Shown piece by piece: positions 8,085 to 53,926 of a stretch of 64,000 bases of DNA. This stretch comes from a virus. Its lineage: Duplodnaviria; Caudoviricetes. Position numbers and translations under genes: made by a program. Within the stretch, counting starts at the first letter, position 1. Every line of letters starts with the position of its first letter. The stretch lies in IMG/VR virus record IMGVR_UViG_2522572155_000001, positions 32,001 through 96,000 of that record. One strand, written 5' to 3'. The notes beneath the pieces are model-generated. The model did no database searches. It was given only the letters and a program-made list of their open reading frames with translations, and was not told where the DNA came from.

Positions 8085-10715
8085 TTACAGCAGCGTCCAC
8101 GTCCACGTCGGGGCGGACGAGTACGTGAGTGTGATCGTCTTCCCTGACGGCAACATCACTAGGCCGCTCGTGACGCCGAGCGTCTGGCCGTCTACCGCGA
8201 TTGCGGTAACGGTGCCGCCGCTGACGAGGACGGCAGCGTCACGGAAGAAGGGGTTGGTGAACGGCGTAGCGGAGGCCGGGATTACTGGCGTGGAGGGAGC
8301 CGCGCCAGCGACCCGGTTTAGGTCGGTGATGCGAACGTTCTTCGCCCCACTGACTGTGGGCGCCACGTTGTTGTTGTCGGTGAAGTTGATCTGCCCGACG
8401 AGGCCGTTAGTCGGATCGCTGAACGTCGTACCGGTGCTCGTCTCGATGTTCAGGTTACCGATGAACACGGGGAACTTGCAGCCAGCGTTGACGCTGGTGT
8501 CAATGATGGTATCGCTCGCCTCGACGGAGAGATTGAGGATCGACGCGCCGTGGAAGGCACGTCCTCCTAGTCCGTACAAGCCCAGTGCCTTCTTGGCGAA
8601 CAGGATGCCGATTCGGTTCGCAGCGAGGTGGTCGGTGAGCGTCATACCGGTGTAGAAGCCCGCGCACGAGAACGTGTCAATCGTAACGTTGTCGTTGTTG
8701 CCAACCTTCGGCAGGATCAGACCCGCGCCATTCGGGTTTGTGGGCTTCGCGGCGTTCATCTGTGCCGTCGTCTGGAAGGCGAGCGTCGAGAGGCTCTTGA
8801 CGTCTGCCATCGCGATGCGCTTGAGATTGACTGCGACAAGCCCGGGGTTAGGCGGCGCGATGACCTGGAGTCCGTCGATGACGAGGAGCATGTTGCTCCA
8901 CCCGGACGGGAACGGGCTTGTGGCAATGATCGCGTCTGTCGGGTCGGGGCCGCCGATGATCGACGGGACACCGTAGCTGGGATCAGTTGCGACGCCGGTA
9001 AGCGTACTGCGGAGAATCACACCGTTGTGCTGCGCAACGTCCTGGTTCCAGTGGTTCCAGGTACTCGCGTTGGCGGTCCCCTTGAGGACGAGAGTGAACT
9101 TCTGCTCGTCATCGTCGCAGATCGGGAGCGGGATTTGCGCGTTGCCGAGGGTGGTCCCGCCCTTGATCGTGGGGCCATCGAGGAGGTACTCGCCACGCTC
9201 GGCAGAGAAGATGACCTCGGCGTAGTGGGAGCCATCCGCGCGACCCTGCGCGAACGCCGCCCCGATGGCGTCATTGATTGCCTGCTGGTCGCTGACACCG
9301 GACGCGACGTAATCTTCGACGTAGAAGCGATTGAGTCCCTCTGAGCCCCTCGCAAACGTTACGGGCTGCCAAGTGCCGCTCACGAGCACAGACATGCGCG
9401 CCGAGACAGGGGCGGGCGGCGTCGCGGGGGCAGTCGGGGTCACCGCGTTCGAATCTGCCGATGCGGAGCCCGCGCCGTTAGAGGCAGTCACCGTACAAAG
9501 GATTGCCTGACCCTCGTCGGCGGGCTGAAGGTCGTAGAGGCTCGACGTTGCGCCGGGGATGCTCGTGCCAGCGCGCTTCCACTGGAATGCGAAGCTCGTG
9601 GGCGAGTTGGTCCAGGAGCCATTCGAGCACGCAAGCGTCTGCCCGGTCTCCGCTGTGCCGGTGAGCGCAGGCGCGACGGTGTTTGCCGGAGGGCTGCCAG
9701 CAGGTGCGGTGGGTGTGACGGTGTTCGAATCGGCGGATACGGAGCCGCCCGCATTCGTTGCCGTCACGGTGCACGTCACAGGCTGGCCTTGGTCAGCCAC
9801 CTGGAGAGCGTAGGCGTTAGCGGTCGCGCCGGAGATTACCGCGCCTGCCCGCTTCCACTGGAATGCGTACGCGGATGGGCTATTCGCCCATGTGCCGGTG
9901 GAGCAGGTGAGCGTCTGTCCGGTCTCTGCGACGCCGGTGATGGCGGGAGCGGTCGTATTCGCCGGGGGAGACGTGGTGGCGGTGCCCGCTGCGTAGTGGG
10001 CAGCAACGCGCGTGCTGGAAAGTTCGCCCTTGTAGACGGCAACCTCATCGAGGCGTCCGGCCAGGTTCAATGACGTAGTGCCGCGAGCCATCAGGAATAG
10101 CGTGCCACTCACCTTGAACGTACTGGCGGTGACGAGTGCGTCCTGACGCGAGGTGGTCGTCACGGGCGCTCCATCTACGTACACCTTGATACGGCTCGCG
10201 GAGGCGACAGCCGGATCGGGCGTGTAGACAGCTACCAAGTGGTGCCAGGCCGCAGCGGACATCGCGGAGCGCGGGAACGTGTGACGGACGATCTCGTTGA
10301 GGTTCGTGCGAAAGCCCACGCTAACCGTGTTGGCCTCCGCACCGGTTGCGGAGTTGTTGGGATCGATGACGAATGTCCCGGAGTTCGTTGACCACGCGCC
10401 GCCGAACTCAGCGAGCATCCGATCATCGTTCGAGTAGGCGTCAATCCAGCACCAACATTCGAAGGTGAGGGGTGCTCCGGCTGTCCCTGACAGGTCGAGC
10501 CCGCTACGGTCGGCGTATTCCGTCGAGCCGTTGAACTGTCGAGCCTGATCCGAGTCTGCTGCGAGCGCTCCAGCGACAGCGGTAAGATTGCCCGCAGGAA
10601 TGACAAGGTCCCGCAAACTGATGGTCGGGTTGATCTCATCGTGGATCGGGGTCGAGCCTCCCATCCGGTAATAGAGATGGGGAGTGTCAGCGAGTACTTC
10701 GGTGGTGTAACTCAT
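8085..10715 (-). CDS. tail appendage protein: LamG-like domain, two Ig-like repeats, beta-helix-like region
   Basis: WHHLVAVY...GRLDEVAVY; two PANTxAPAxTGxAETGQTLxCSxGxW repeats. Confidence 0.75.
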   Translation of the reverse strand: MSYTTEVLADTPHLYYRMGGSTPIHDEINPTISLRDLVIPAGNLTAVAGALAADSDQARQFNGSTEYADRSGLDLSGTAGAPLTFECWCWIDAYSNDDRMLAEFGGAWSTNSGTFVIDPNNSATGAEANTVSVGFRTNLNEIVRHTFPRSAMSAAAWHHLVAVYTPDPAVASASRIKVYVDGAPVTTTSRQDALVTASTFKVSGTLFLMARGTTSLNLAGRLDEVAVYKGELSSTRVAAHYAAGTATTSPPANTTAPAITGVAETGQTLTCSTGTWANSPSAYAFQWKRAGAVISGATANAYALQVADQGQPVTCTVTATNAGGSVSADSNTVTPTAPAGSPPANTVAPALTGTAETGQTLACSNGSWTNSPTSFAFQWKRAGTSIPGATSSLYDLQPADEGQAILCTVTASNGAGSASADSNAVTPTAPATPPAPVSARMSVLVSGTWQPVTFARGSEGLNRFYVEDYVASGVSDQQAINDAIGAAFAQGRADGSHYAEVIFSAERGEYLLDGPTIKGGTTLGNAQIPLPICDDDEQKFTLVLKGTANASTWNHWNQDVAQHNGVILRSTLTGVATDPSYGVPSIIGGPDPTDAIIATSPFPSGWSNMLLVIDGLQVIAPPNPGLVAVNLKRIAMADVKSLSTLAFQTTAQMNAAKPTNPNGAGLILPKVGNNDNVTIDTFSCAGFYTGMTLTDHLAANRIGILFAKKALGLYGLGGRAFHGASILNLSVEASDTIIDTSVNAGCKFPVFIGNLNIETSTGTTFSDPTNGLVGQINFTDNNNVAPTVSGAKNVRITDLNRVAGAAPSTPVIPASATPFTNPFFRDAAVLVSGGTVTAIAVDGQTLGVTSGLVMLPSGKTITLTYSSAPTWTWTLL

Positions 10716-31112: not shown

Positions 31113-33336
31113 TTGCCTTGTAATCCGGTTCGATGATGCTGTAGGACTGCTTCTTCACCGGCCGGGGCAGGCGCTCTACCGTCTTCTCTGCGGAGGCGAC
31201 ACGCGGCCGTAGTGCTGTACCTTCATTCTCGGCCGCATCGTGGGTAACCTCAGCCTTGACAGACGATGTTGGTCCGCCGATGCCGGGCCGCCTCTCCATC
31301 GAGATTGCAGGGGCCACCAGACCGCCGCCAGGGCCTCCCTGAGGGCCAGGGGCGGTGATGGCGGGGCCGCCACCCGGCACGCTGTCTCCGAAGCCTCCAG
31401 GGCCAAGCATTCCGCCCGGGGGAGGGGGCATGACGATTGAGTCGCCCGGCGTACCTCCCGGCATCGGCGGACCGCCTGCGTCGGGTCCCATCGGAGGCCC
31501 GGCCATCGGCATCCCGCCGGGCGCACCCGGACCGGGGGTACCCGGTGCGATCGGCATCGAGCCCTGAAGGACTGTCTCCACCTCGGCCTTGAGGTCGGGC
31601 GGGATCGGCAGGTTCTTCTCGTGAAGTACCTTGTAGGTCTTCATCTTCGCTTCCTGCTGAGCGACGGTCTTCTTGACCAGTTCCTCGTTGTAGTCGTTGA
31701 TCTCGTCCTCGATGTCGAAGTCAACGCCGATGAGCATGCTCTTGTCGGAGATGGGCACACCCATGGTCCGGAGTGTCTGGAGGAACTGACGCTCGGTTGC
31801 CTCGTCGCGGAGATCGAGCGTCTGGAAGCGAAGCTCCGGGATTAGGAGCTTGTGCCGCTCCACGATGACCTTCTTGCCCTCGGCGTCGTGCTCTACGACT
31901 TCCTCCATCACCGGCACGCGAGTCTGTCCACGCGTTTCGTACTCGTAGTGCCCCTGAGCCTCTGCCACGACCATCGCGCGGGAGCGGAAGTGATCCTTGA
32001 GGAAGCCCTGGTAGGTACGGAGAATCTGGTTCAGGAACTCAGCCTGAAGCGCGGAGGATGCATACGGCTGGGAATTGGATCCAGCGGAGAGCAGTGACGG
32101 GTTGACGCCGAAAATCTGCATGAGGCGACGCTCGACGCGATCGAAGTCGTCACCAAGGCGAGGCATCTGCTCACGCCCGAAGACGTTCTCCATCTCGATG
32201 CCGACGTGGTGAACGAGGAGACGGAAGTCCGAGGTAAGAGCGATGTCCAGGTCGTCGCGGAATGCATCTAGCTCTTCCGGGCCAGGGATGTACGGCGGGT
32301 AACCGTCACCCAGGTCCACGATGCCGAGCTTCGCAAGGATGAGCGGGGAGTACAGACGCTCCGCGATGGCGTCCTGTGACGCTAGGAGCTTCTCCTCGTG
32401 GATGAGTGTCCGTAGGCCGCGCAGGAGGATCGGCGTGCCGTGGTCGTCCCACGGTGAGGTCTTGTTGGCTACCTGCTTGAGGAGGACATCCGAGATGGGG
32501 ATGTGGTCGCCGCGCTTCAGGTAGGGGATCAACTCGGGGAAGTTGAGTTCTAGCTGGCGATACTCCTTCGGCGGGGTCTTGGACTGAGCGAGCTTCTTGA
32601 GATAGTCCGGCGGTACGATCTTCAGTGATCGTGTACCGAGCAGCGGAAAGTTCTCGATCACCACGTCTTCCGGGTTGATGAGTTCTTCGCGCTCGAAGAT
32701 GCCAAGGTTCTCATCGAACGAGGCCATGGGGAACGCCTCGCCTACGGTCCAGTACTCACGACCGAGGTTGACGAAGAAGTTTTGGTACTCAAGCTGGTCA
32801 AGAAATAGCTCGGAGTACCAGTCGGCTAGCTGTTGGTCCTTGCAGTACATCTCCATGCCCACGAGTGGGAAGCGGGTGAAGATGTCGATGAGGATGGGTA
32901 CGAGGTGGTGCGTCGCGTAGTAGAGACGGAGCCACTTGTGGAGCTTGTGCCGGTGAGACTCGTCAGCGGTGTTCCACGGCAGCCCCGTTACGTCCCAGTA
33001 CTCGATCGGGTCATAGAAGCGAGGAATGGCGGCGAACACGTCGTTGCCGCCGCTGCTGAAGCTCGATGTACGCTGGACGGAAGAGGCACGGCGTTGCGCC
33101 CGCATCGCTCGCATGAGGCGCGTGTTCTGCTCGATCGCCTCTACGCTGTTGGCACCGCCTGCGAGCCCGGACATGATCGTCCGCTCAAGGTCACCGGGCG
33201 ATTGAGCCATCCGGTGCATGTCGTGAGCGGCGAGTCGGGCTCGCGCGGTGTTCTGAGGGAGAGCAACCCCTCGCTTCTGGAGATTGGCTAGCTCTGCGTC
33301 AAGCTGCCTCGTGTCAACTCGCTTCTGCATACTCAA
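31084..33336 (-). CDS. portal protein
   Basis: size, context, GREYWTVGEAF and HGTPILLRGL segments, Pro/Gly-rich tail. Confidence 0.75.
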   Translation of the reverse strand: MSMQKRVDTRQLDAELANLQKRGVALPQNTARARLAAHDMHRMAQSPGDLERTIMSGLAGGANSVEAIEQNTRLMRAMRAQRRASSVQRTSSFSSGGNDVFAAIPRFYDPIEYWDVTGLPWNTADESHRHKLHKWLRLYYATHHLVPILIDIFTRFPLVGMEMYCKDQQLADWYSELFLDQLEYQNFFVNLGREYWTVGEAFPMASFDENLGIFEREELINPEDVVIENFPLLGTRSLKIVPPDYLKKLAQSKTPPKEYRQLELNFPELIPYLKRGDHIPISDVLLKQVANKTSPWDDHGTPILLRGLRTLIHEEKLLASQDAIAERLYSPLILAKLGIVDLGDGYPPYIPGPEELDAFRDDLDIALTSDFRLLVHHVGIEMENVFGREQMPRLGDDFDRVERRLMQIFGVNPSLLSAGSNSQPYASSALQAEFLNQILRTYQGFLKDHFRSRAMVVAEAQGHYEYETRGQTRVPVMEEVVEHDAEGKKVIVERHKLLIPELRFQTLDLRDEATERQFLQTLRTMGVPISDKSMLIGVDFDIEDEINDYNEELVKKTVAQQEAKMKTYKVLHEKNLPIPPDLKAEVETVLQGSMPIAPGTPGPGAPGGMPMAGPPMGPDAGGPPMPGGTPGDSIVMPPPPGGMLGPGGFGDSVPGGGPAITAPGPQGGPGGGLVAPAISMERRPGIGGPTSSVKAEVTHDAAENEGTALRPRVASAEKTVERLPRPVKKQSYSIIEPDYKASDSDPDKPA

Positions 33337-45218: not shown

Positions 45219-45839
45219 TTAGGAGAGGAAGAGCTTGCGCTCCGCTTCGCGACGGCTTGTGAGCCCGGGTAGCACACGGCTGCCTGCCATGTCCCAATCG
45301 AGCAGGTGGTTCGCCGCGCCCTTCCAGTCGTGCGAGCGCAGCGCGCGGCCGACGCCGGTATCCCGGTCGATGGCTCCGGGTCCGCAGTTGTAGACGAAGC
45401 TCACCAGGGCGTCGAACTGATGCTGGCTCAGCGGGAGGTGAAGGGCGGCGACCGGCGGGGCGTACTTGTGGTTGAGGTCTGTCTTGAGGAGAGCCGTCGC
45501 CTGCTTCTCGGTGATGTTCTTCGAGTTTGGGCCGACGCCGGACGTGTGACCGTAGCCGATGGTCCACACGCCCACGGCGTCGCGGTAGGGGTGATCTACG
45601 AAGCCCTCGAAGCGCTTGATGAGGGCGACGCCCGAGTCAGAGACCTTGGTGATGCGCTTGGCGGCAAGCTGCTTCTTGCGACGCTGCACCAACTCATGGG
45701 CGTTCTTGTACATCCCGTACCAGTAGGCCCGGCGCGGGGACTTGGAGTTCTTCTTGACATAGTCTCGCCAGTTCTTGTGGAAGCGAGACTCACGCTCTTC
45801 CCAGAGGGCGAGAGAGTGCTGTAGCTCGGTAACGGTCAT
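45219..45839 (-). CDS. endolysin, GH24 lysozyme
   Basis: IKRFEG..PYRDAVGVWTIGYGHT..FDALVSFVYNCG..GLTSRREAE. Confidence 0.92.
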   Translation of the reverse strand: MTVTELQHSLALWEERESRFHKNWRDYVKKNSKSPRRAYWYGMYKNAHELVQRRKKQLAAKRITKVSDSGVALIKRFEGFVDHPYRDAVGVWTIGYGHTSGVGPNSKNITEKQATALLKTDLNHKYAPPVAALHLPLSQHQFDALVSFVYNCGPGAIDRDTGVGRALRSHDWKGAANHLLDWDMAGSRVLPGLTSRREAERKLFLS

Positions 45840-45874
45840 GTCTATCCGTTACGACTTAGGTCGCGCCCGAAAAG

Positions 45875-45947
45875 TGGCTCTAGCAGGAGTCGAACCTGCG
45901 GCCTCTCCCTTATGAGGGGATCGCTCTGGCCTCTGAGCTATAGAGCC
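45875..45947 (-). tRNA. tRNA-Met/Ile2 (CAT)
   Basis: cloverleaf, loop CTCATAA. Confidence 0.85.
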
Positions 45948-45953
45948 GGTGAG

Positions 45954-46025
45954 AGCCGCGTGCGGGACTCGAACCCGCGATGCCTGCTTGGAAGGCAGGA
46001 GTGTTGGCCACTACACCAACGCGGC
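45954..46025 (-). tRNA. tRNA-Gly (TCC)
   Basis: cloverleaf, loop CTTCCAA. Confidence 0.9.
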
Positions 46026-46136
46026 GTGCAGAGAAACGGTGCTCTGATGCACCAGTTTCGCCTCGCGAGATTCTTACCTCCCGCGCCCTTCGGAAGAGGT
46101 GAAGGTCACCATCCATCTACCCGAAAGGGAAACATC

Positions 46137-46379
46137 ATGTCTCAGGTTGTCAAGCTCGACAGTCGCACGTTCGTAGCTGTCCCACAGCTAGCAATCGGCG
46201 CCCATACCATCGACGGATACGTGTTCGGCGGGATGCCGTACTACAACCCGGCGCCGGACTCCATTAGCGCCGTCACGATTTGGTGGAAGCTACTCGCGGA
46301 CCCGAGCTACGCGTCGTTGCCGCCGGTCACGTCGATCAGCGTGGAGACCACGGTCTCCGGTACCGTCAACCCGGTCTAG
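46137..46379 (+). CDS. hypothetical protein, antisense to the tRNA array
   Basis: RBS AAAGGGA; MSQVVKLDS... 80 aa. Confidence 0.65.
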   Translation: MSQVVKLDSRTFVAVPQLAIGAHTIDGYVFGGMPYYNPAPDSISAVTIWWKLLADPSYASLPPVTSISVETTVSGTVNPV

Positions 46380-46579
46380 GAGAAGATCCGAGCGATCTGC
46401 TCGTGCGTCGCTCCCTGGGCGAGATAGCGACGCACGTCGTGGTGACTGAGGGCGAAGCCGTCCAAGCCCTTTGCATCCACGAGGCTCATCACCTGGTCGT
46501 CAACGAAGCCGAGCGAGCGAAACGTCTCGCTACGGTACGCCCTGATCTTGTCACCATTGAGGTCGGTGGTACCTGCCAT
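46376..46579 (-). CDS. hypothetical protein
   Basis: ORF track. Confidence 0.5.
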   Translation of the reverse strand: MAGTTDLNGDKIRAYRSETFRSLGFVDDQVMSLVDAKGLDGFALSHHDVRRYLAQGATHEQIARIFS

Positions 46580-46583
46580 TCTA

Positions 46584-46655
46584 AGCTCCCTATCAGAATC
46601 GAACTGATTTCCCGGGGTTACAAGGCCCGTGCATCTCCATCAATGCTTAGGGAGC
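46584..46655 (-). tRNA. tRNA-Thr (TGT)
   Basis: cloverleaf, loop CTTGTAA. Confidence 0.8.
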
Positions 46656-46665
46656 GGGACGAGCC

Positions 46666-47199
46666 CTACTTCCTCGGGCTCTTCTTGTGTCGATGCAAGC
46701 GAGAAGCATGCGCGTTGAGTCGCCTGCGGGCGAGCTTCGCCGGGCTTGCTGCGAAGTTCACGTGGTGAGCCTCGGAGGCCGTGTGATACGGCTGGTGCAC
46801 CTTGTAGCCGTAGCGATGGAGCACGCGGAGTAGGTCATCCCATTCCGTAACGTCGAGACCTAGCTGATAGGGCCGGAGCTTGTGCCCGACGTGGCCGATG
46901 GTGCCATCTCCGAGCAGCAGGTGGGAGCCCTGGGTCGGTGGGTTCGCGGGCAGGAACCCGGGCAGGCGCTTCGTCCATCCGTTGAACAGGTACGCCTGGT
47001 CGTGAAGCTTGGTCTTGTGCCTCTTGTTGAACGACTTGATCGTGGATACGCGACGATCTGCCGAGACAAGGTGTCCCTTCCAGCCGTTGTTACGCGCGTC
47101 CTGGAGTGCCCATGCGAGGCCCCGGTAGACGGGCACATTGTCGAACTTGACGATGTGCCACGCCGGGTAGACCGTGCTCAGAAGCGGTAGGCGGCTCAT
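46666..47199 (-). CDS. peptidase M15-like cell-wall hydrolase
   Basis: DQAYLF..ANPP..SH..GLDV..EAHHV. Confidence 0.6.
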   Translation of the reverse strand: MSRLPLLSTVYPAWHIVKFDNVPVYRGLAWALQDARNNGWKGHLVSADRRVSTIKSFNKRHKTKLHDQAYLFNGWTKRLPGFLPANPPTQGSHLLLGDGTIGHVGHKLRPYQLGLDVTEWDDLLRVLHRYGYKVHQPYHTASEAHHVNFAASPAKLARRRLNAHASRLHRHKKSPRK

Positions 47200-47234
47200 G
47201 CCGCTTACGTGAGAGGCTCAACGATGAAGTAAGG

Positions 47235-47512
47235 TCACGCCCTATAGCCAGGATTCTGTCGTGGTCGATCATCTACCTCTGTATCGCGTATCGATACGCG
47301 ATACAGGCCACACCTTTACGTGGTGGCTGCCCTCAACCTTGCTCACCCCTGGTTGCCCTCGGGTGGCTATTGCGAGGTTGCACCCTGCCTCCCCACTGAG
47401 GTTCGAACGGCCGTAAGCCTCCCTCCGGAGGATCAGTATCTGCGACGAGGTTTGCCCCCGCCAGGGTGTCCTGAACTTCCTCTGGCCGAGGCCAGCGATC
47501 GACTAGGCGTGA
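47235..47512 (-). ncRNA. rnpB: RNase P RNA (compact, ~278 nt)
   Basis: P1 TCACGCC/GGCGTGA; P2 GTCGATC/GATCGAC; P3 CTGGCC/GGCCAG; GAGGAAGTTCAGGA pairs ACAGAATCCTGGCT (P4 with bulged U); CACCCTGG/CCAGGGGTG; GAGCAAG. Confidence 0.85.
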
Positions 47513-47513
47513 G

Positions 47514-47586
47514 AGCCCACGCGGGGATTCGAGCCCCGGACCTCTCCCTTACGAGGGGAGCGCTCTACCTGCTGAGCTACGTGGGC
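47514..47586 (-). tRNA. tRNA-Thr (CGT)
   Basis: loop CTCGTAA; T-loop reads CTCGAAT. Confidence 0.88.
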
Positions 47587-47591
47587 GTGCA

Positions 47592-47664
47592 AGCCACCAC
47601 AGGGAGTCGAACCCTGGACCCCTGCCTTACCATGGCAGTGCTCTGTCCTCTGAGCTATGGCGGC
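47592..47664 (-). tRNA. tRNA-Thr (GGT)
   Basis: loop ATGGTAA. Confidence 0.9.
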
Positions 47665-47667
47665 GTA

Positions 47668-47739
47668 AGGGGTATGTGGGAATCGAACCCACCTTTGCGA
47701 CATGGCAAGCCACCGTAATAGCCGATATACGAATACCCC
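47668..47739 (-). tRNA. tRNA-Gly (GCC)
   Basis: loop TTGCCAT. Confidence 0.85.
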
Positions 47740-47752
47740 TTGTCTACTGCTA

Positions 47753-47823
47753 GCGCCCCAACGAGGAATCGAACCTCGCATCTCGGATTCGAAGTCCAAG
47801 CGCCAGACACACTGGCAAGGGCG
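47753..47823 (-). tRNA. tRNA-Arg (TCG), irregular acceptor stem
   Basis: loop CTTCGAA, good T- and D-arms. Confidence 0.65.
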
Positions 47824-47827
47824 GAAG

Positions 47828-47900
47828 TGCCCCCTACTGGATTCGAACCAGTGACCTCGGCCGTCGCAGGGCCGCGCTCTATCCACTGAGCTAAGAGGGC
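47828..47900 (-). tRNA. tRNA-Arg (GCG)
   Basis: CGGCC-CTGCGAC-GGCCG. Confidence 0.9.
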
Positions 47901-47902
47901 AG

Positions 47903-47936
47903 AGGGTGGGGTCACACACCGCTAGGACCCCACCCT
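47903..47936. other. hairpin between HNH gene and tRNA
   Basis: AGGGTGGGGTC...GACCCCACCCT, 11-bp stem. Confidence 0.6.
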
Positions 47937-47937
47937 G

Positions 47938-48534
47938 CTACTGATCGAACCGGCCTTCGAGCCAGTCCTTTACGAGGCGAGCCTCGTATACCTGGTCATC
48001 GCCTTCCGCGAGCAATTCGATGATCTTCGGGTGCTCGCGACGAAGCTGTTCCAGGAGGCGACGGGCGTTCGCCCGTTCCTCCTGCGTGAGGTACCCCACG
48101 ATCGAGACGGTGTTATCTCTGTCGTGGAGGTCACGGTGGCAGTCGATGCACACAGGGATTGTGCACCGTGACCGGGCGGCGACCTGTACGTAGTTGGATA
48201 GCTCCCGCATCATCCAACGGTTGACGTAGTGGTGCCTCGTGGAGTCCCCAGGACGGCCGCAGCAGCGACATTCAGGCTGAACCTGTCTCAGCGCTCTGTA
48301 GGCGTTCCTGCGCTCTACGATCTCGGCCGGGGGAGTACCCTGGTCTAGGGCATCACGCAGAGCCTCCACGATTTGCCCTTGCGTCGGGTGCGTATCGAGC
48401 AAGTCGTCAAGCTCGATCCCCGTCACCGTGGTGAGGAGTTCAAGCTGCTCGTGCGTTGCCTTGCGGCCATTGGCCGAAGCGTCGTACCACCAGGTGTCCC
48501 CGGTGGGGAGAGTGATGGGACGGGCGCGTGACAT
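47938..48534 (-). CDS. HNH-like endonuclease within tRNA array
   Basis: CRCCG..TRHH..VCIDCHRDLH. Confidence 0.7.
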   Translation of the reverse strand: MSRARPITLPTGDTWWYDASANGRKATHEQLELLTTVTGIELDDLLDTHPTQGQIVEALRDALDQGTPPAEIVERRNAYRALRQVQPECRCCGRPGDSTRHHYVNRWMMRELSNYVQVAARSRCTIPVCIDCHRDLHDRDNTVSIVGYLTQEERANARRLLEQLRREHPKIIELLAEGDDQVYEARLVKDWLEGRFDQ

Positions 48535-48551
48535 TGTTCCTCACTGGTTAG

Positions 48552-48624
48552 TGCCGCGTACGGGAATCGAACCCGTGTTACCTACGTGAGAGGCAGGCGT
48601 CCTGGTCCACTAGACGAACGCGGC
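48552..48624 (-). tRNA. tRNA-Glu (CTC)
   Basis: loop CTCTCAC. Confidence 0.9.
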
Positions 48625-48631
48625 AGGTGGA

Positions 48632-48707
48632 GGGCGACCAGCGGGATTCGAACCCGTCGCTGCTGGAGTCACAGTCCAGAGTGCTAACCGCTGACACTAT
48701 GGCCGCC
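48632..48707 (-). tRNA. tRNA-His (GTG)
   Basis: loop CTGTGAC, G-1:C73. Confidence 0.9.
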
Positions 48708-48713
48708 ATGAAG

Positions 48714-48784
48714 CTGGGGAGCAAGGATTTGAACCTCAACTAACGGGGCCAAAACCCGTCGTGCTGCCGTTACACCACTCCCCA
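48714..48784 (-). tRNA. tRNA-Gln (TTG)
   Basis: loop TTTTGGC. Confidence 0.9.
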
Positions 48785-48798
48785 GTGGTTACTGCTGA

Positions 48799-48872
48799 TA
48801 GCGGGAGGAGGATTTGAACCTCCGACCTCCAGGTTATGAGCCTAGCGAGCTACCTGACTGCTCCATCCCGCA
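48799..48872 (-). tRNA. initiator-like tRNA-Met (CAT)
   Basis: fMet-like body, 1:72 mismatch, loop CTCATAA. Confidence 0.88.
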
Positions 48873-48887
48873 TGGGTGAACTGCAAG

Positions 48888-48962
48888 TACCCTCGCTCGG
48901 ATTCGAACCGAGACATGAACGGTGTTTGAAACCGCTACCTCTGCCAATTGGGCTACGAGGGC
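48888..48962 (-). tRNA. tRNA-Leu (CAA), short variable arm
   Basis: loop TTCAAAC. Confidence 0.88.
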
Positions 48963-48963
48963 A

Positions 48964-49035
48964 TAGGGCGACGGAGAATCGAACTCCGGCTACGGGGGTG
49001 AAAACCCAGCGGTCTGACCACTAACCTACCGCCCC
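48964..49035 (-). tRNA. tRNA-Glu (TTC)
   Basis: loop TTTTCAC. Confidence 0.85.
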
Positions 49036-49047
49036 AGGTACTTCGAG

Positions 49048-49122
49048 TGCACCCACGAGGATTTGAACCTCGGACCTCCGCCTTATCAGAGCGGCGCTCT
49101 AACCAAACTGAGCTATGAGTGC
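49048..49122 (-). tRNA. tRNA-Ile (GAT)
   Basis: loop CTGATAA. Confidence 0.9.
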
Positions 49123-49126
49123 AGAG

Positions 49127-49198
49127 TGGAACGCCCCGGAATCGAACCGGGTACACCGCGAGTTTCAGCCGCGTGCTCTACCGATGAGCTAGCGCTCC
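49127..49198 (-). tRNA. tRNA-Phe (GAA)
   Basis: loop CTGAAAC. Confidence 0.9.
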
Positions 49199-49201
49199 AG
49201 G

Positions 49202-49294
49202 TCAGGCCACGAGGCAAAGGGGGAGCCTCGTCTGAGCGGCGTCATGGGACATCCCGGACCGCCGCTAGCGTCTCGCGATCCCCTCGTGACCTGA
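49202..49294 (-). ncRNA. unassigned structured RNA
   Basis: 13-bp closing stem, inner AGCGGCG/CGCCGCT; fills the spacer between two tRNAs. Confidence 0.55.
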
Positions 49295-49296
49295 AG

Positions 49297-49369
49297 TGGA
49301 GCCTAAGGGGTTCGAACCCTTCACCTCCTGCTTGCAAGGCAGGCGCTCTCCCAACTGAGCTAAGGCCCC
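49297..49369 (-). tRNA. tRNA-Ala (TGC)
   Basis: loop CTTGCAA, G3:U70. Confidence 0.92.
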
Positions 49370-49530
49370 ATGTCGTCGCCAAACGATTCCCACTTGGCGA
49401 TTGCACCATCTTCGAGATAGACGCGCCACCAGCGCATCCTCACGATCCTTCCGTGCGTATCCCATTCGACCCACACGTGGAACTGAATTCGGTCGTACGT
49501 GGGATGGTCGATGACCACCATCTGCTCCAT
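49360..49530 (-). CDS. small hypothetical protein (56 aa) whose stop lies inside tRNA-Ala
   Basis: MEQMVVIDHPTYDRIQFHVWVEWD... Confidence 0.4.
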   Translation of the reverse strand: MEQMVVIDHPTYDRIQFHVWVEWDTHGRIVRMRWWRVYLEDGAIAKWESFGDDMGP

Positions 49531-49547
49531 GCACAAACGTAGTCGGA

Positions 49548-49634
49548 CGGAGAGAGGGAGATTCGAACTCCCGAGACACTTTCGTGTCTACCGTCTTTCC
49601 AGGACGGGCCGTTCAGCCACTCCGGCACCTCTCC
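49548..49634 (-). tRNA. tRNA-Ser (GGA)
   Basis: long variable arm, loop CTGGAAA. Confidence 0.92.
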
Positions 49635-49637
49635 AAG

Positions 49638-49721
49638 CGGAAGCAGAGGGAATCGAACCCCCGACGCTGTCACACGCAGCCGGGTTCAAACCGGTGTCCT
49701 CGTCCATGCCGGACTACTTCC
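49638..49721 (-). tRNA. tRNA-Ser (TGA)
   Basis: loop TTTGAAC, atypical D-arm. Confidence 0.8.
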
Positions 49722-49724
49722 GTA

Positions 49725-49796
49725 AGGCGGGGAGGGGAATCGAACCCCTGTAACGCGCTTTGCAGGCGCGCACATAAGCCACTCTGTCACCCCGCC
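49725..49796 (-). tRNA. tRNA-Cys (GCA)
   Basis: loop CTGCAAA, U73. Confidence 0.92.
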
Positions 49797-49852
49797 GGGT
49801 GTGGACAAGCAGCAGTTTAGCAGTAGCGAATGCCCTGCACGCTACAGATAAG

Positions 49853-49924
49853 CTGGCCCGGGAGGATTCGAACCCCCGACATCCCGAGTAACAGTCGGGC
49901 GTTCTGCCACTGAACTACGGGCCA
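49853..49924 (-). tRNA. tRNA-Asn (GTT)
   Basis: loop CTGTTAC. Confidence 0.9.
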
Positions 49925-49943
49925 GTAGTTAGGTGCTGGTAGG

Positions 49944-50017
49944 TGGACCGTCCGGGATTCGAACCCGGATAGCAAGGGTAAGAGCCAAGTATGTTATCCA
50001 GTTGACATCAACGGTCC
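49944..50017 (-). tRNA. tRNA-Lys (CTT)
   Basis: loop CTCTTAC; two U-U mismatches in anticodon stem. Confidence 0.75.
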
Positions 50018-50021
50018 GATA

Positions 50022-50109
50022 CGGAAGGAGAGGGAGTCGAACCCTCGGTACCCGGTTAGGGCACACTCGCTTAGCAGGCGAGCCTATTCGGCCTCTCTAG
50101 CATCCTTCC
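50022..50109 (-). tRNA. tRNA-Ser (GCT)
   Basis: long arm, loop CTGCTAA. Confidence 0.9.
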
Positions 50110-50111
50110 AG

Positions 50112-50183
50112 TGCCCCCGAGAGGACTCGAACCTCCAGCCTAACCCTTAGGAGGGGTTCGCTCTTCCGTTGAGCTACAGGGGC
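50112..50183 (-). tRNA. tRNA-Arg (CCT)
   Basis: loop CTCCTAA. Confidence 0.9.
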
Positions 50184-50191
50184 GAAGATTG

Positions 50192-50322
50192 CCCACCAAG
50201 GCTTGTCCGCTTGCCTGTCCTCCGTGCGGAGGAGATCGGTCCTGACCGCAGACATGTATCCGATCTTTCAGTCTGCGGGTAGGCGGTTTCGCCTGGCTCG
50301 TAACCGATCCAGGTCGGGTGGG
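50192..50322 (-). ncRNA. unassigned multi-stem RNA
   Basis: CCCACC/GGTGGG, GATCGGT/ACCGATC, AGGCG/CGCCT, CCGCAGAC/GTCTGCGG, TCCTCCG/CGGAGGA. Confidence 0.6.
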
Positions 50323-50328
50323 ACTTAG

Positions 50329-50709
50329 TGGAGGCGCCGGGAGTCGAACCCGGGTGTTCCGTGCGCGTATCTCGCCAGTCTTTCAGCAGCTTAGGCCGTA
50401 GGTGGCCATCCACAATCTAAGGACACAGGCTAGCTGTGTCTCCACCACCTGCTCGATACGGTCGAGCAGGAAACCGGCCCTCCGTTTAGGAGGGCGTCAC
50501 CCGGAGTTCTGGTCCTAGGCCCCGGGAGCCCGCGCCGTAGGTTACGCTACGGCTAGAAGTGCTTCCAGTTCGTCCTCGACGGTCATAGTGACCTCGGACG
50601 GCATGGAAGCGATGATGTTCTCGCCAGTTATGGCTTGTGGCAGGTAGGTGTGCCGACCGCTGCACTGCTCGGGACTGCATCTCACGGAGTCGAAGCCATG
50701 TTCGCCCCC
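50329..50709 (-). ncRNA. ssrA: tmRNA
   Basis: 5' GGGGGCGAACATGGCTTCGAC; 3' CCCGGGTTCGACTCCCGGCGCCTCCA; G3:U; tag ORF 50542-50625. Confidence 0.92.
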
Positions 50710-50713
50710 AGGA

Positions 50714-50778
50714 GGTTCGCCACTCCGACCACCCTTCGCGGGTGGACCCGGAGCGCTCGAAGTCTCCGGCTGCGAACC
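50714..50778 (-). ncRNA. small three-way-junction RNA
   Basis: GGTTCGC/GCGAACC, CCGGAG/CTCCGG, CCACCC/GGGTGG. Confidence 0.45.
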
Positions 50779-50779
50779 A

Positions 50780-50852
50780 TGTACCCCACAGGGCTCGAAC
50801 CTGTGACCTCGTGCCTGTCAAGCACGTGCTCTCCCAACTGAGCTAGGGGTAC
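50780..50852 (-). tRNA. tRNA-Val (GAC)
   Basis: loop TTGACAG. Confidence 0.9.
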
Positions 50853-50855
50853 GGA

Positions 50856-50928
50856 TGCGCGGTGACGGACTCGAACCGCCGACCTACCGGGTGTAAACCG
50901 GTCGCTCTCCCAACTGAGCTAACCGCGC
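50856..50928 (-). tRNA. tRNA-Val (TAC)
   Basis: loop TTTACAC. Confidence 0.92.
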
Positions 50929-50937
50929 GAGGTATAG

Positions 50938-51009
50938 CAGGGGATACAGGACTCGAACCCGTAGCCTCGGTTTTGGAGACCGAGATGTTCGCCTTTACAC
51001 CAATCCCCT
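50938..51009 (-). tRNA. tRNA-Trp (CCA)
   Basis: loop CTCCAAA. Confidence 0.9.
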
Positions 51010-51014
51010 GGGAG

Positions 51015-51088
51015 CGGTAGTGACGGGGCTCGAACCCGCGACCTCTGCCGTGACAGGGCAGCGCTCTAACCAACTGAGCTACACCACC
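51015..51088 (-). tRNA. tRNA-Asp (GTC)
   Basis: loop CTGTCAC, G73. Confidence 0.92.
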
Positions 51089-51099
51089 AGGTACTTCTA

Positions 51100-51174
51100 T
51101 CAGGATGAGAGGATTCGAACCTCCGACTTCTCGCTCCCGAAGCGAGCGCTCTGGCCAGACTGAGCTACACCCTG
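51100..51174 (-). tRNA. tRNA-Pro (CGG)
   Basis: loop TTCGGGA. Confidence 0.92.
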
Positions 51175-51186
51175 TTACCGCGTAAG

Positions 51187-51268
51187 TACACCCGGAGAGA
51201 TTCGAACTCTCAATCCCGAAGGCACTGGTTCCTAAGACCAGCGTGTATGCCAGTTCCACCACGGGTGC
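51187..51268 (-). tRNA. tRNA-Leu (TAG)
   Basis: loop CTTAGGA, long arm. Confidence 0.9.
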
Positions 51269-51271
51269 ATA

Positions 51272-51337
51272 AGCGACGAGGCCGAGGGAGGGAAGGGACC
51301 TGGAGGTGCAAACCATGAACCAGGGGGCCTCGTCGCT
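51272..51337 (-). ncRNA. unassigned hairpin RNA with C/U-rich internal loop
   Basis: AGCGACGAGGCC/GGCCTCGTCGCT perfect 12-bp stem; loop TCCCTTCCCTCCCTC. Confidence 0.55.
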
Positions 51338-51339
51338 AG

Positions 51340-51420
51340 CGCGCCCTCAAGGAATCGAACCTCGCCAGCAATTGCAACCGGGTTACAGCCGGTCGGGAAC
51401 TCCAGTTCCCCATAGAGCGC
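51340..51420 (-). tRNA. atypical tRNA with GTA (Tyr) anticodon
   Basis: loop CTGTAAC; 6-bp D-stem with 4-nt loop. Confidence 0.75.
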
Positions 51421-51425
51421 GAATG

Positions 51426-51530
51426 ACGCAGGCTCACTGATTCGGGCGCGACCACGGAGCAACTAGACCCCAGCTAGGCTTGGGGGCCATGCGGTATTTC
51501 ACCGCTGCACTCAGGAGGATTACCCTGCGT
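51426..51530 (-). ncRNA. unassigned structured RNA
   Basis: ACGCAGG/CCTGCGT closing stem; GCGGT-GAAAT-ACCGC; GGCCCC/GGGGTC. Confidence 0.5.
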
Positions 51531-51566
51531 TGAGACGTTGATATGTACCGGTGTCTCAGACCGGAG

Positions 51567-51638
51567 TGTCCTCCAAGGGACTCGAACCCTTGACGATGCC
51601 CTTAGAAGGGGCGCGCTCTGCCGCTGAGCTAGGAGGAC
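51567..51638 (-). tRNA. tRNA-Arg (TCT), first tRNA of the array
   Basis: loop CTTCTAA. Confidence 0.9.
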
Positions 51639-51689
51639 GACTTGCATGAGAACGTCATCGGCCGGGGCCGGGCGAACTCCTATGTCGAG

Positions 51690-51721
51690 AGAAAGAAAAG
51701 GCCCGCTCGAATGGCGGGCCT
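51690..51721 (-). terminator. intrinsic terminator (attenuator) in the tRNA-array leader
   Basis: AGGCCCGC-CATTCGA-GCGGGCCT-TTTCTTTCT. Confidence 0.85.
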
Positions 51722-51752
51722 CCTGTACGCGCGATGTGCGGGTAGCAGGAGG

Positions 51753-51812
51753 CTACGACAGGGTCTGACCCTTCGGATCGCGACGCGAGTTATGTCTAAT
51801 GAAGTAGGCCAT
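51753..51812 (-). CDS. putative leader peptide MAYFIRHNSRRDPKGQTLS
   Basis: ATG after purine-rich AAGGGGTACAGAGAAG; stop codon overlaps the antiterminator arm. Confidence 0.7.
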   Translation of the reverse strand: MAYFIRHNSRRDPKGQTLS

Positions 51813-51914
51813 TGCTTCTCTGTACCCCTTACCCCAGGCGTGTGGGGCGGTTTCCAGTGCCGCCAGCCTAAAGATTGTCTAAAGGCTGGCGGCGTGGAAG
51901 GGCGACGACGGAGA

Positions 51915-51943
51915 ACTATAGCCCGGGGCCTACCGTTCGTCAA
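51915..51943 (-). promoter_or_regulatory. sigma-A-type promoter of the tRNA array
   Basis: TTGACG-N17-TATAGT. Confidence 0.85.
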
Positions 51944-51970
51944 GGAGAAACTATAAGGCGGGTTCGAATC

Positions 51971-53926
51971 CTAGGCGATCTCGCATGCCCCTGCTACGCA
52001 GGCAAGCTCCTTCATTCCCTCCGTGGCGTCCTCCGTCTCGAACGATGTGAGGGCGTCCCAATACAGGCTGTCGGGCATGGCCTCGGCCAGGCGCACGTAC
52101 ATCTCCTGGTCGATGTCCTGGTAGGGCGCCTGCTGGTATGTATGGTCGGAGTGGGGGAGGAACGAGACGCCGGACATGCGGTCGAAGTGCTTGAAGACGA
52201 AGGCGCCGACCTCCATCCACTCGTCGTCGCGTACGTAGACCGTGATCGAGGGCTTGTGCTCGCACCAGTGCTCGGCGTACGTCAGCCATAGCTCTAGCTG
52301 CTCGATGGCGCTCATGTCGTGCCGCGTGATCGCGCCCTCGGGGGCCTGCATGGGGTAGCTGAAGACCAACGTGCTGTCTGGGTGCAGAAGCTCGTCTTCG
52401 ACCGGCACGCCGCTAGCGGCGAGGAACTGGGCCACGGGGTCGTTCTTGCTCGCGCGGTTTGTCCGCACGTAGTACGGCGCGTAGCGCGGATGGATACCCG
52501 AGGACGCGTCTACAAGCTGCGAGACGGTCCCGGAGGGCTTCACACACGTGATCGCCGTGGGGACGTTGATCCCGAGCTTGGATGCCCAGTTGGTGGCCGT
52601 GTCGATGGCCACCTGCTTCAGGCCGTCGAGGATGTCCCGGAGTAGTGCCTTGCCCTTGCGCCCGGCCATGACCAGGTTGTCCATGATGCCGGTGATCGAG
52701 ACGCCCAGGAGACGCTCTTCCTCGCAGTTCTTCTTCCACGTGGGGGAGAGGAAGCGGAAGTCGGTGAAGGTGCTCTGGATGCAGCCCAAGATGGTCGCGA
52801 GGCGTACCTTCTCTGCCAGGGTCTCGAAGGTATCGTCGGCCCGGCACACGACCTCGGACAGATTGCAGAACTGCCGGTCCCTGAGGATGATCTCCGAGCA
52901 CGGGTTGGTGCCGAAGTCGAAGGAGGCGTCACGACGCCCGGACCGAGCAGCGATCTTCTGCATCCCGGCGCGGTTGACGATCCCGCGTTCCCCTGACTTG
53001 GACTTGATGAGGCTGGTCCACTCCTCCATGAAGAGTTCAGCCGTGGGGCGCTCGTCGTAGACGGCCGAGTTGTTGGCGAGCGCGTACTCGGGGTGGCTAT
53101 CCCACCACTGCCCGGCCTTCGCGTTGCGCATGCGGTCGTCGGAGAGGTTCGAGAGGGAGATCAGGGCCGAGCGACGGACACCGCCCACCACCACGATGTC
53201 TCCCACCTTGCACATGACGCCGTGGCACTCGATAGAGGTGAGCTTGCGGCCCTGCGCTGCCCTGAACGTCTCGATGATGTACCGGAACAGATCCTCCAGC
53301 GGAGCCGGACCAGACGCACGGCCGCCGAAGGTCTTCAGCCGAGCACCGGCAGGGCGTACCTTCGAGGTATCGACGTTCGGGATGTTGCCCGCGTAGAGAG
53401 CCGCCAGCAGACGATTCAGGGCGGACGCCCAGCCCTGCTTCGAGTCCGCGACCACGATCACGTCATCACAAGGGAAGAGGTTCGGCACCTCAGGGAGCTT
53501 GCTGACGTACTGACGCTCCACCGAGAACCCGACGCCGGTACCGCACATCAGGATGTACATGGCCTCAGCGAACGCCTGAACGCGCGAGACGGTGAGGTAG
53601 GCGCAGTTGTAACCCGCAACGTTATCCCGCTCCAGAGCAGGACCGGCGGTCATGAGTGCCCTCATGGAACCAAGGGAGCGGAGGTCGAGCATTCCATCCG
53701 CGAGCGCGGAGCGCTCATCAGGGGTTAGAGCGTACCCCATCTTCAGCGCCTGCTTCTCCATCGCGGAGATGTAGCGCTCGATGCTCTCGTGCCAGAACTC
53801 CCGGCGACCCTCGCGTTCGACCCACCGCGAGTACTTCGTCATGTGGATCTGCTGCTGGTACAGGGTTGGGAGGGTAACGATGTCGTTCTCTTCAGTCATA
53901 AGCGTGCTCGTTACATAGTCGGCCAC
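51971..53926 (-). CDS. nrdJ: class II (B12-dependent) ribonucleotide reductase
   Basis: YNCA, GTGVGFSV, GGVRRSA, TNPCSEI, TCVKPSGT, C-terminal CVAGAC. Confidence 0.92.
   Translation of the reverse strand: MADYVTSTLMTEENDIVTLPTLYQQQIHMTKYSRWVEREGRREFWHESIERYISAMEKQALKMGYALTPDERSALADGMLDLRSLGSMRALMTAGPALERDNVAGYNCAYLTVSRVQAFAEAMYILMCGTGVGFSVERQYVSKLPEVPNLFPCDDVIVVADSKQGWASALNRLLAALYAGNIPNVDTSKVRPAGARLKTFGGRASGPAPLEDLFRYIIETFRAAQGRKLTSIECHGVMCKVGDIVVVGGVRRSALISLSNLSDDRMRNAKAGQWWDSHPEYALANNSAVYDERPTAELFMEEWTSLIKSKSGERGIVNRAGMQKIAARSGRRDASFDFGTNPCSEIILRDRQFCNLSEVVCRADDTFETLAEKVRLATILGCIQSTFTDFRFLSPTWKKNCEEERLLGVSITGIMDNLVMAGRKGKALLRDILDGLKQVAIDTATNWASKLGINVPTAITCVKPSGTVSQLVDASSGIHPRYAPYYVRTNRASKNDPVAQFLAASGVPVEDELLHPDSTLVFSYPMQAPEGAITRHDMSAIEQLELWLTYAEHWCEHKPSITVYVRDDEWMEVGAFVFKHFDRMSGVSFLPHSDHTYQQAPYQDIDQEMYVRLAEAMPDSLYWDALTSFETEDATEGMKELACVAGACEIA

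Follow-up and report, generated by a model that had tools for sequence, protein, structure and literature searches.

The window analysed here is a 64,000-nt stretch of a Caudoviricetes genome (IMG/VR record IMGVR_UViG_2522572155_000001, positions 32,001 to 96,000), and its minus strand carries a short leader cassette between a class II ribonucleotide reductase (RNR) gene and a long array of transfer RNA (tRNA) genes. The cassette consists of a sigma-70-like promoter, a 5' hairpin, a small open reading frame (ORF), a hairpin at the stop codon of this ORF (H1) and an intrinsic terminator (Table 1). Gene order along this strand is RNR, leader cassette, tRNA array with a transfer-messenger RNA (tmRNA), lysozyme, terminase and portal. 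The window is contained in contig C5 of a 6.6 Mb host genome (G000; ~72.5% GC), within a block of ~165 kb (C5 ~215,000-380,000) whose GC content is 62-66%. The lower GC content and the host-like DNA on either side indicate that the block is a large integrated prophage.

A preliminary description of this DNA had listed the promoter, an 11-bp hairpin, the ORF, the H1 arms and the terminator, and all of them were found, base for base, where Table 1 places them. The ORF uses 16 different amino acids in 19 codons, with three different Arg codons (AGA, CGT and CGC), as had been described. The two overlaps reported for H1 were also confirmed: its 5' arm (GCCTCCTG in DNA) begins on the final G of the stop codon, which the two share, and the 3' arm, the perfect complement of the 5' arm, has GGC in common with the terminator 5' arm. 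The terminator stem is extendable by pairing of AGGA with the U's of UUUUCUUUC. The 223-nt leader RNA folds at -97.7 kcal/mol (z = -6.1 compared with shuffles), and its minimum-energy fold includes the GCCUCCUG:CAGGAGGC hairpin. TTGACG-N17-TATAGT was the only sigma-70-like site found in 45500-53500; by itself, a single match in 8 kb is not above chance (1 found vs 1.5 expected). The parts of the cassette are nevertheless non-random, because each of them recurs, in the same order and with the same spacing, in eight other diverged leaders.

Table 1 Features of the leader cassette and the genes around it, with the positions of a recurrent element between terminator and tRNA. Coordinates are those of the window unless a relative is named.
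Feature	Position	Strand	Details
Class II (B12-dependent) RNR	51971..53926	-	Pfam PF02867, PF21995; directly upstream of the cassette
Sigma-70-like promoter, TTGACG-N17-TATAGT	51915..51943	-	-35 at 51943-51938, 17-nt spacer, -10 at 51920-51915
5' hairpin	51859..51893	-	11-bp stem GCCGCCAGCCT/AGGCUGGCGGC; loop with two CUUUAG repeats
Leader ORF	51753..51812	-	19 codons and TAG, MAYFIRHNSRRDPKGQTLS; ATG 51812 to TAG 51755-51753
Hairpin H1 (candidate antiterminator)	51718..51753	-	GCCUCCUG/CAGGAGGC; -22.5 kcal/mol, z = -5.1; 5' arm 51753-51746, 3' arm 51725-51718
Intrinsic terminator, GGCCCGC-CATTCGA-GCGGGCC	51691..51724	-	stem 51720-51700, then TTTTCTTTC at 51699-51691
Spacer, terminator to first tRNA	51639..51690	-	no sigma-70-like promoter found
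tRNA-Arg(TCT)	51566..51638	-	first gene past the terminator, in the window and all relatives
Co-oriented array	45874..51638	-	32 tRNAs (all 20 amino acids), tmRNA, weak RNase P class A match, two small ORFs
tmRNA	50326-50709	-	49 bits vs Rfam gathering score 47
RNase P RNA class A match, full-length but weak	47229-47514	-	40.2 bits vs gathering score 100, E = 2.5e-11 (381-nt search)
Phage lysozyme gene	45219..45839	-	begins 35 nt past the last tRNA; no terminator in between
Terminase large subunit	41953-39899	-	downstream of lysozyme, same strand
Portal	33336-31084	-	downstream of terminase, same strand
Hairpin and (C)ACATA, window	51639-51690	-	
Hairpin and (C)ACATA, L089	12324-12374		
Hairpin and (C)ACATA, L253	10420-10469		
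Hairpin and (C)ACATA, L252	10225-10270		
Hairpin and (C)ACATA, L090	3265-3312		
Hairpin and (C)ACATA, L254	6266-6310		
Hairpin and (C)ACATA, L258	6178-6222		

Conservation and composition of the leader

The RNR served as the anchor for finding relatives of the locus. INPHARED phage records gave no DNA match, the best RNR in IMG/VR was 61% identical and came without the RNR-to-tRNA synteny, and 360 related genomes (60 searched by DNA, 300 of the class by RNR protein) contained nothing close. RNR scans of metagenome and genome collections returned unrelated phage and candidate phyla radiation (CPR) RNRs and no clade member. Search of a large protein collection revealed RNR homologues 64-74% identical on metagenomic contigs, some of them 150-170 kb long. 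The relatives have in common a divergent replication module, the RNR, sometimes one inserted gene, an intergenic leader and tRNA-Arg(TCT) heading a long array with tmRNA. Eight further distinct leaders were obtained from relatives with readable DNA and with RNRs 66-74% identical to that of the window: L086, L087, L089, L090, L252, L253, L254 (identical in L255 and L256) and L258. The long contig P0013 and contigs P0009 and P0007 are not in this set, and L257 (RNR 66%) was left out: it belongs to another type of phage, in which the RNR is followed by a plain terminator. Two of the contigs P0013, P0009 and P0007 seem to have few or no tRNAs. In L253, and in that relative only, a 49-codon ORF with CxxC...CxxC spacing (9908-10057) was observed between the RNR and the leader promoter.

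The layout of the cassette was the same in all nine leaders. A promoter lies at the equivalent place in each (TTGACA/TTGCAC, 16-18 nt, TAnnnT; extended -10 in L258), followed by a small ATG ORF of 18-36 codons, an H1 that starts -1 to +4 nt relative to the stop codon (z = -2.6 to -6.3), and a GC-rich stem with a U-run. The T-run begins 50-54 nt past the stop codon in all nine (53 nt in the window). The preliminary description had proposed looking upstream of related phage tRNA arrays for a conserved ORF of high diversity with hairpins, and this arrangement was found in the eight further leaders. The initial transcribed motif TCTC-CGTCG was present in four of the nine, and the 5' hairpin in seven; it is absent in L252 and L090, which have almost no 5' untranslated region before the first ATG and in which a second in-frame ATG (after GAAGCA or GAACCC) may be the real start. 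CUUUAG(A) direct repeats in the loop of the 5' hairpin, which could be a protein- or RNA-binding motif, are common to the window (51859-51893) and L087 (11975-12012), and the stems of the two hairpins differ.

The arms of H1 are perfectly complementary within each leader, and their sequence varies by lineage: GCCUCCUG/CAGGAGGC, CCCUGG/CCAGGG, GCCCUC/GAGGGC, GCCCUCUAC/GUAGAGGGC, GGCUUCUUCUUG/CAGGAAGAAGCC, GGCCUCUG/CAGAGGCC and CCGGAA/UUCCGG. The arms were compared directly, with no formal covariation count, and the MAFFT alignment from stop codon to terminator was out of register for H1. Such compensatory change indicates a selected RNA helix. In seven of the nine leaders the purine-rich 3' arm of H1 gives the first 2-4 bases of the terminator 5' arm, that is, the bottom pairs beside the U-run.

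An array promoter downstream of the terminator had been named as a finding that would speak against attenuation. No sigma-70-like site was detected in 51639-51690, and in L086 only 11 nt lie between the T-run and the first tRNA, which leaves no room for a separate promoter before the tRNAs. A second small GC hairpin with (C)ACATA, 12-17 nt before the tRNA 5' end, was observed between the terminator and tRNA-Arg(TCT) in 7/9 (Table 1) and is absent in L086; this element could mark a site of processing or a promoter not of the sigma-70 type.

Besides the layout, the leaders have in common a great variety of amino acids in the ORF. The number of different amino acids per number of codons was 16/19 in the window, 17/19 in L254, 14/18 in L087, 20/33 in L258, 20/36 in L086, 18/34 in L252, 17/29 in L090, 19/31 in L089 and 20/31 in L253. 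All 20 amino acids thus occur in three leaders, and they also occur in the called homologue P0124 (34 residues, 20 kinds), which was the sole new homologue in a profile search of 1.8 billion representative proteins. Each of the nine values is higher than the average expected if residues were drawn from the phage proteome, from random codons of 60% GC or even at equal frequency for all 20 amino acids. The six frames of the prophage and the related loci contain 789 ATG ORFs with a length of 18-36 codons, and of these only the leaders reach at least 19 kinds. Over the same bases, the leader ORF frame was the most diverse of the six in 9/9. Nucleotide shuffles that kept the frame open gave P values from <3e-4 to 0.10 (Fisher-combined 2e-10 for seven lineages without the window), and the P value of the window leader was 0.004-0.005.

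The leader peptides are weakly homologous, with M-x-Y/F-F..H at the N-terminus and, in several of them, GQE near the C-terminus. They are 18-71% identical and otherwise diverged to 18-30%. Between the closest pair, L089 and L253, 11 codons differ and nine of these differences change the residue; at positions 2-6, LSFIH of one leader corresponds to IFLSY of the other, with the residue set retained. Since the set of residues is kept and their order is not, selection appears to act on composition rather than on sequence. Taken together, these comparisons are strong indirect evidence that ribosomes read the leader frame and that selection acts on its amino-acid content. The core of the preliminary description, a leader ORF that samples nearly every amino acid and is coupled to a terminator by way of the hairpin at its stop codon, is backed, as far as sequence goes, by conservation in nine leaders, by diversity specific to one frame and by the 11-nt spacer of L086.

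A candidate switch and its alternatives

The arrangement observed in the window is confirmed, and comparative evidence supports its interpretation as an attenuator. We consider it probable that the cassette is a ribosome-dependent leader-peptide transcription attenuator, heading the phage tRNA/tmRNA array and sensing general decoding capacity. What we infer from the sequences is that the ORF is translated, in which direction the switch works and to which physiological signal it responds. Host RNA polymerase would start at the sigma-70-type promoter and make a leader of ~210 nt, and a ribosome would translate the 19-codon ORF, in which a high variety of amino acids seems to be maintained across the lineage (14-20 kinds per 18-36 codons). 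With prompt decoding, the ribosome would arrive at the stop codon before the polymerase had moved more than ~50 nt beyond it. Once the stop codon was in the A site, the ribosome would cover ~10 further bases, the whole pyrimidine-rich 5' arm of H1; with H1 blocked, the full terminator stem would form and transcription would end before tRNA-Arg(TCT). If the ribosome lagged at any codon, or were absent, H1 would fold first and tie up the bases needed for the lowest pairs of the terminator stem, next to the U-run. Such a lag could arise from a tRNA that is missing, cleaved or uncharged, or from a general loss of translation capacity. Weakened termination would then allow read-through into the array with its tRNAs, tmRNA and RNase-P-like RNA, probably also into the lysis and late genes. 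The new phage tRNAs would speed translation of the leader and restore termination as a feedback. Because the output comprises tRNAs for all 20 amino acids together with tmRNA and RNase-P-like RNA, feedback control of decoding capacity would be the simplest purpose of such a switch.

Both conformers of the switch, which the preliminary description had proposed to fold, were modelled for every leader, and the outcome was divided. When a ribosome at the stop codon was represented by masking, the terminator had a modelled probability of 0.96-1.00 in 9/9, a figure that reflects geometry only. With the ribosome upstream or absent, this probability fell in 7/9 models: to <0.25 at some stall positions in L086, L252, L090, L253 and L254, and to 0.3-0.65 in the window. 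L087 and L089 showed no switch. These are equilibrium folds applied to a process that is decided kinetically. H1 is transcribed before the terminator and holds the bases that close the terminator stem down to the U-run. In intrinsic termination the stem pairs next to the U-run matter most, and by analogy these pairs may carry similar weight here. Pairing of the region 1:2 type known from trp was not detected, as duplexes between the ORF and the H1 5' arm were no better than those of shuffled ORFs (P 0.24-0.79). Without 1:2 pairing an untranslated leader should read through, so the switch would be on by default and turned off by prompt translation.

A more far-reaching version of leader-peptide attenuation holds that the ORF has been selected as a roster of all, or nearly all, 20 amino acids and acts as one homeostatic switch reading the whole tRNA pool. 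We put this forward tentatively, as a possibility that falls somewhat short of an even chance. Depletion or cleavage of any tRNA (by anticodon nucleases or during host shut-off), or collapse of translation, would turn on a replacement kit of 32 tRNAs, tmRNA and RNase-P-like RNA, possibly licensing late and lysis genes as well, and the new tRNAs would close the switch. The preliminary description had also connected the leader's AGA codon with the first gene downstream. tRNA-Arg(TCT) is indeed the first gene in the window and in all relatives; the link to AGA is weak, since only 2/9 leaders contain this codon.

Several observations weigh against a leader-peptide attenuator of this kind. Sampling is incomplete, as Val, Trp and Cys are frequently absent from leaders whose arrays carry those tRNAs. 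No leader ORF has a clear Shine-Dalgarno sequence; most genes of the phage also lack one. Codons of the leader match anticodons of the array in 18/19 cases vs 86% in the background, and this comparison lacks statistical power, since 86% of all phage codons can be read by the array; enrichment of A/T-ending codons likewise had no discriminating power. The overlap of H1 with the core stem of the terminator is only 2-4 nt, and the two helices merely abut in L089 and L253. The absence of a switch in the equilibrium folds of L087 and L089 belongs here too. Lastly, the lysozyme, terminase and portal genes lie downstream of the array with no terminator or promoter evident before them. In a lysogen, read-through would consequently be costly unless another control exists, and the cassette may gate lysis and late genes as well as tRNAs.

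The most serious alternative concerns how far the control extends. It is late-operon control in the style of lambda PR'-6S RNA-tR', in which a constitutive promoter would give a short terminated leader, a Q-like or other processive antiterminator would carry the polymerase past the terminator into tRNAs, lysis, packaging and structural genes, and the small ORF would be incidental or secondary. The cassette stands before one co-oriented block of tRNAs, lysozyme, terminase and portal. No other strong sigma-70-like promoter upstream of this block came up when the 165 kb element was scanned, and the leader length of ~160-230 nt resembles that of lambda 6S RNA. Control of this kind leaves unexplained why the ORF is conserved, why its stop codon lies at the foot of H1 in 9/9 and why diversity is specific to its frame. 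A search of the whole genome for the Q families PF06530 and PF03589, the only two searched, gave no match, which is weak evidence because antiterminators are diverse. We regard late-operon control in place of attenuation as unlikely; late-operon antitermination and leader-peptide attenuation could coexist.

Slightly less likely still is a free-standing small gene that makes a stable structured small RNA, a functional peptide of 19-36 residues, or both, and that has the terminator as its own end, with the array expressed by leak-through or from an unrecognised phage-type promoter. Such a gene would agree with the strong structure of the leader (z = -6.1), with the weak peptide homology (M-x-Y/F-F..H and the C-terminal GQE) and with the hairpin and ACATA between terminator and tRNA in 7/9, where a non-sigma-70 promoter or processing site may lie. 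The peptide, however, is not under purifying selection, as 9/11 codon differences between L089 and L253 change the residue, and the T-run and tRNA of L086 are only 11 nt apart; it is the lack of peptide conservation and this short spacer that make a free-standing gene the less likely reading. The cassette is, moreover, always tied to tRNA-Arg(TCT) in relatives with readable DNA.

It is also conceivable, and in our view improbable, that the cassette senses translation and has an opposite or different output, with H1 only protecting or processing the RNA, or with efficient translation promoting read-through. That the 3' arm of H1 takes bases from the bottom of the terminator stem in 7/9, and that a ribosome at the stop codon always gives the full terminator in the models, argue against this, whereas the lack of mutual exclusion between H1 and terminator in L089 and L253 and the heterogeneity of the equilibrium folds are in its favour. 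That a terminator after the RNR, a promoter-like match and an open frame came together by chance is very improbable: one promoter-like match in 8 kb is within expectation and short open frames are common in DNA of 60% GC, but nine diverged sequences that are not recent copies (RNR 66-74%, leader peptides 18-71% identical) show all the parts in one order and with one spacing, together with compensatory changes in H1 and extreme frame-specific diversity.

The tRNA array and neighbouring genes

The match to bacterial RNase P RNA class A within the array was missed by a 7-kb search at E <= 0.001; it resembles a phage RNase P RNA of compact or divergent form. The tmRNA of the window has an unusually long predicted tag (GENIIASMPSEVTMTVEDELEALLAVA), and the tmRNA tags of the relatives differ. 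ARAGORN called a 91-nt tRNA-His at 47753-47843 (minus strand), which is probably spurious: it overlaps tRNA-Arg(GCG) at 47827-47900, and Rfam supports only 47668-47739 and 47828-47900.

Most structural and late genes (window 200-45839, minus strand) have no Shine-Dalgarno sequence, and in many of them a TAA or TAG stands a few to ~12 bases (typically 6-10) ahead of the start codon, a pattern suggestive of translational coupling or of an unusual signal for initiation. Genes for translation rescue and NAD salvage were observed in the relatives (L086 18301-19725 and 5097-5435; P0013 contig). They comprise a TROVE (Ro60-like) gene, located within the tRNA array, a gene for a small RF-1-domain (ArfB-like) protein, and one for a PTH2 peptidyl-tRNA hydrolase with NAMPT/NUDIX genes. 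The TROVE, RF-domain and peptidyl-tRNA hydrolase genes fit a phage lineage invested in translation rescue.

Comparison with known systems

Phage tRNA arrays are seen as counter-measures to tRNA-targeting defences and host shut-off, and to our knowledge little is understood of how they are regulated. The preliminary description was aware of no phage example of such a leader, and our full-text searches of the literature on leader peptides and attenuators before phage tRNA genes likewise found no relevant publication. If the proposed mechanism is true, leader-peptide attenuation would be extended from one amino acid to the whole decoding machinery, and the cassette would provide a first cis-regulatory logic for tRNA genes in which the sensing is done by the ribosome. 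In the roster version it would be a homeostatic pan-tRNA sensor, a type of control that is not known from any tRNA operon. The combination of a promoter, a mini-ORF of high diversity, a hairpin at its stop codon and a terminator would then be a signature for finding switches in other large phages. If the cassette also times lysis and late genes, translational stress would be linked to the phage developmental programme.

Among phage systems, the PR'/6S/tR'/Q late control of lambda is similar in having a strong promoter and a terminated leader of ~200 nt directly upstream of lysis and morphogenesis genes. It differs in that no Q homologue (PF06530, PF03589) was found here, and in that the lambda late leader is not known to have a conserved ORF that is translated and coupled to a stop-codon hairpin. 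T-box riboswitches also couple tRNA status to terminator read-through by means of a leader RNA. A T-box acts without a ribosome, by direct binding of one specific uncharged tRNA, whereas the switch proposed here would depend on the ribosome, and no T-box was matched by Rfam at E up to 10 in 51300-52300.

In layout, the cassette resembles the classical leader-peptide attenuators (trpL, hisL, leuL, pheL, thrL and ilvL). These share with the cassette a short promoter-proximal ORF, an intrinsic terminator before the regulated genes, a stop codon just before an RNA arm able to pair with the terminator 5' arm, and the position of the ribosome as the signal; their terminators lie ~50-65 nt after the stop codon, compared with 50-54 nt here. 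The ilv and thr leaders of enterobacteria sense more than one amino acid. Unlike the classical leaders, the cassette has no run of a single regulatory codon and uses nearly every amino acid once or twice, its candidate antiterminator and its terminator overlap by only 2-4 nt, no region 1:2 pairing as in trp was detected, and phage tRNAs, tmRNA and RNase-P-like RNA, not biosynthetic enzymes, would be under its control. The codon run and the 1:2 pairing are among the traits that define the classical family. The Rfam model RF00513 (Trp_leader) scored 21.6 bits vs a gathering score of 41 (E = 0.12), and the confident part of the alignment was the terminator only.

In the general nature of the proposed signal, the cassette resembles antibiotic-responsive ribosome-mediated attenuators such as bmrCD and mef/msr, which are reported to sense general ribosome stalling (PMC4191407, PMC4335068). 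These leaders also have a small ORF, and slowed translation of whatever cause switches the terminator off. They respond to drug-bound ribosomes and control resistance genes, whereas in the cassette studied here the composition of the ORF points to tRNA and amino-acid supply as the signal, and the output would be the tRNAs themselves.

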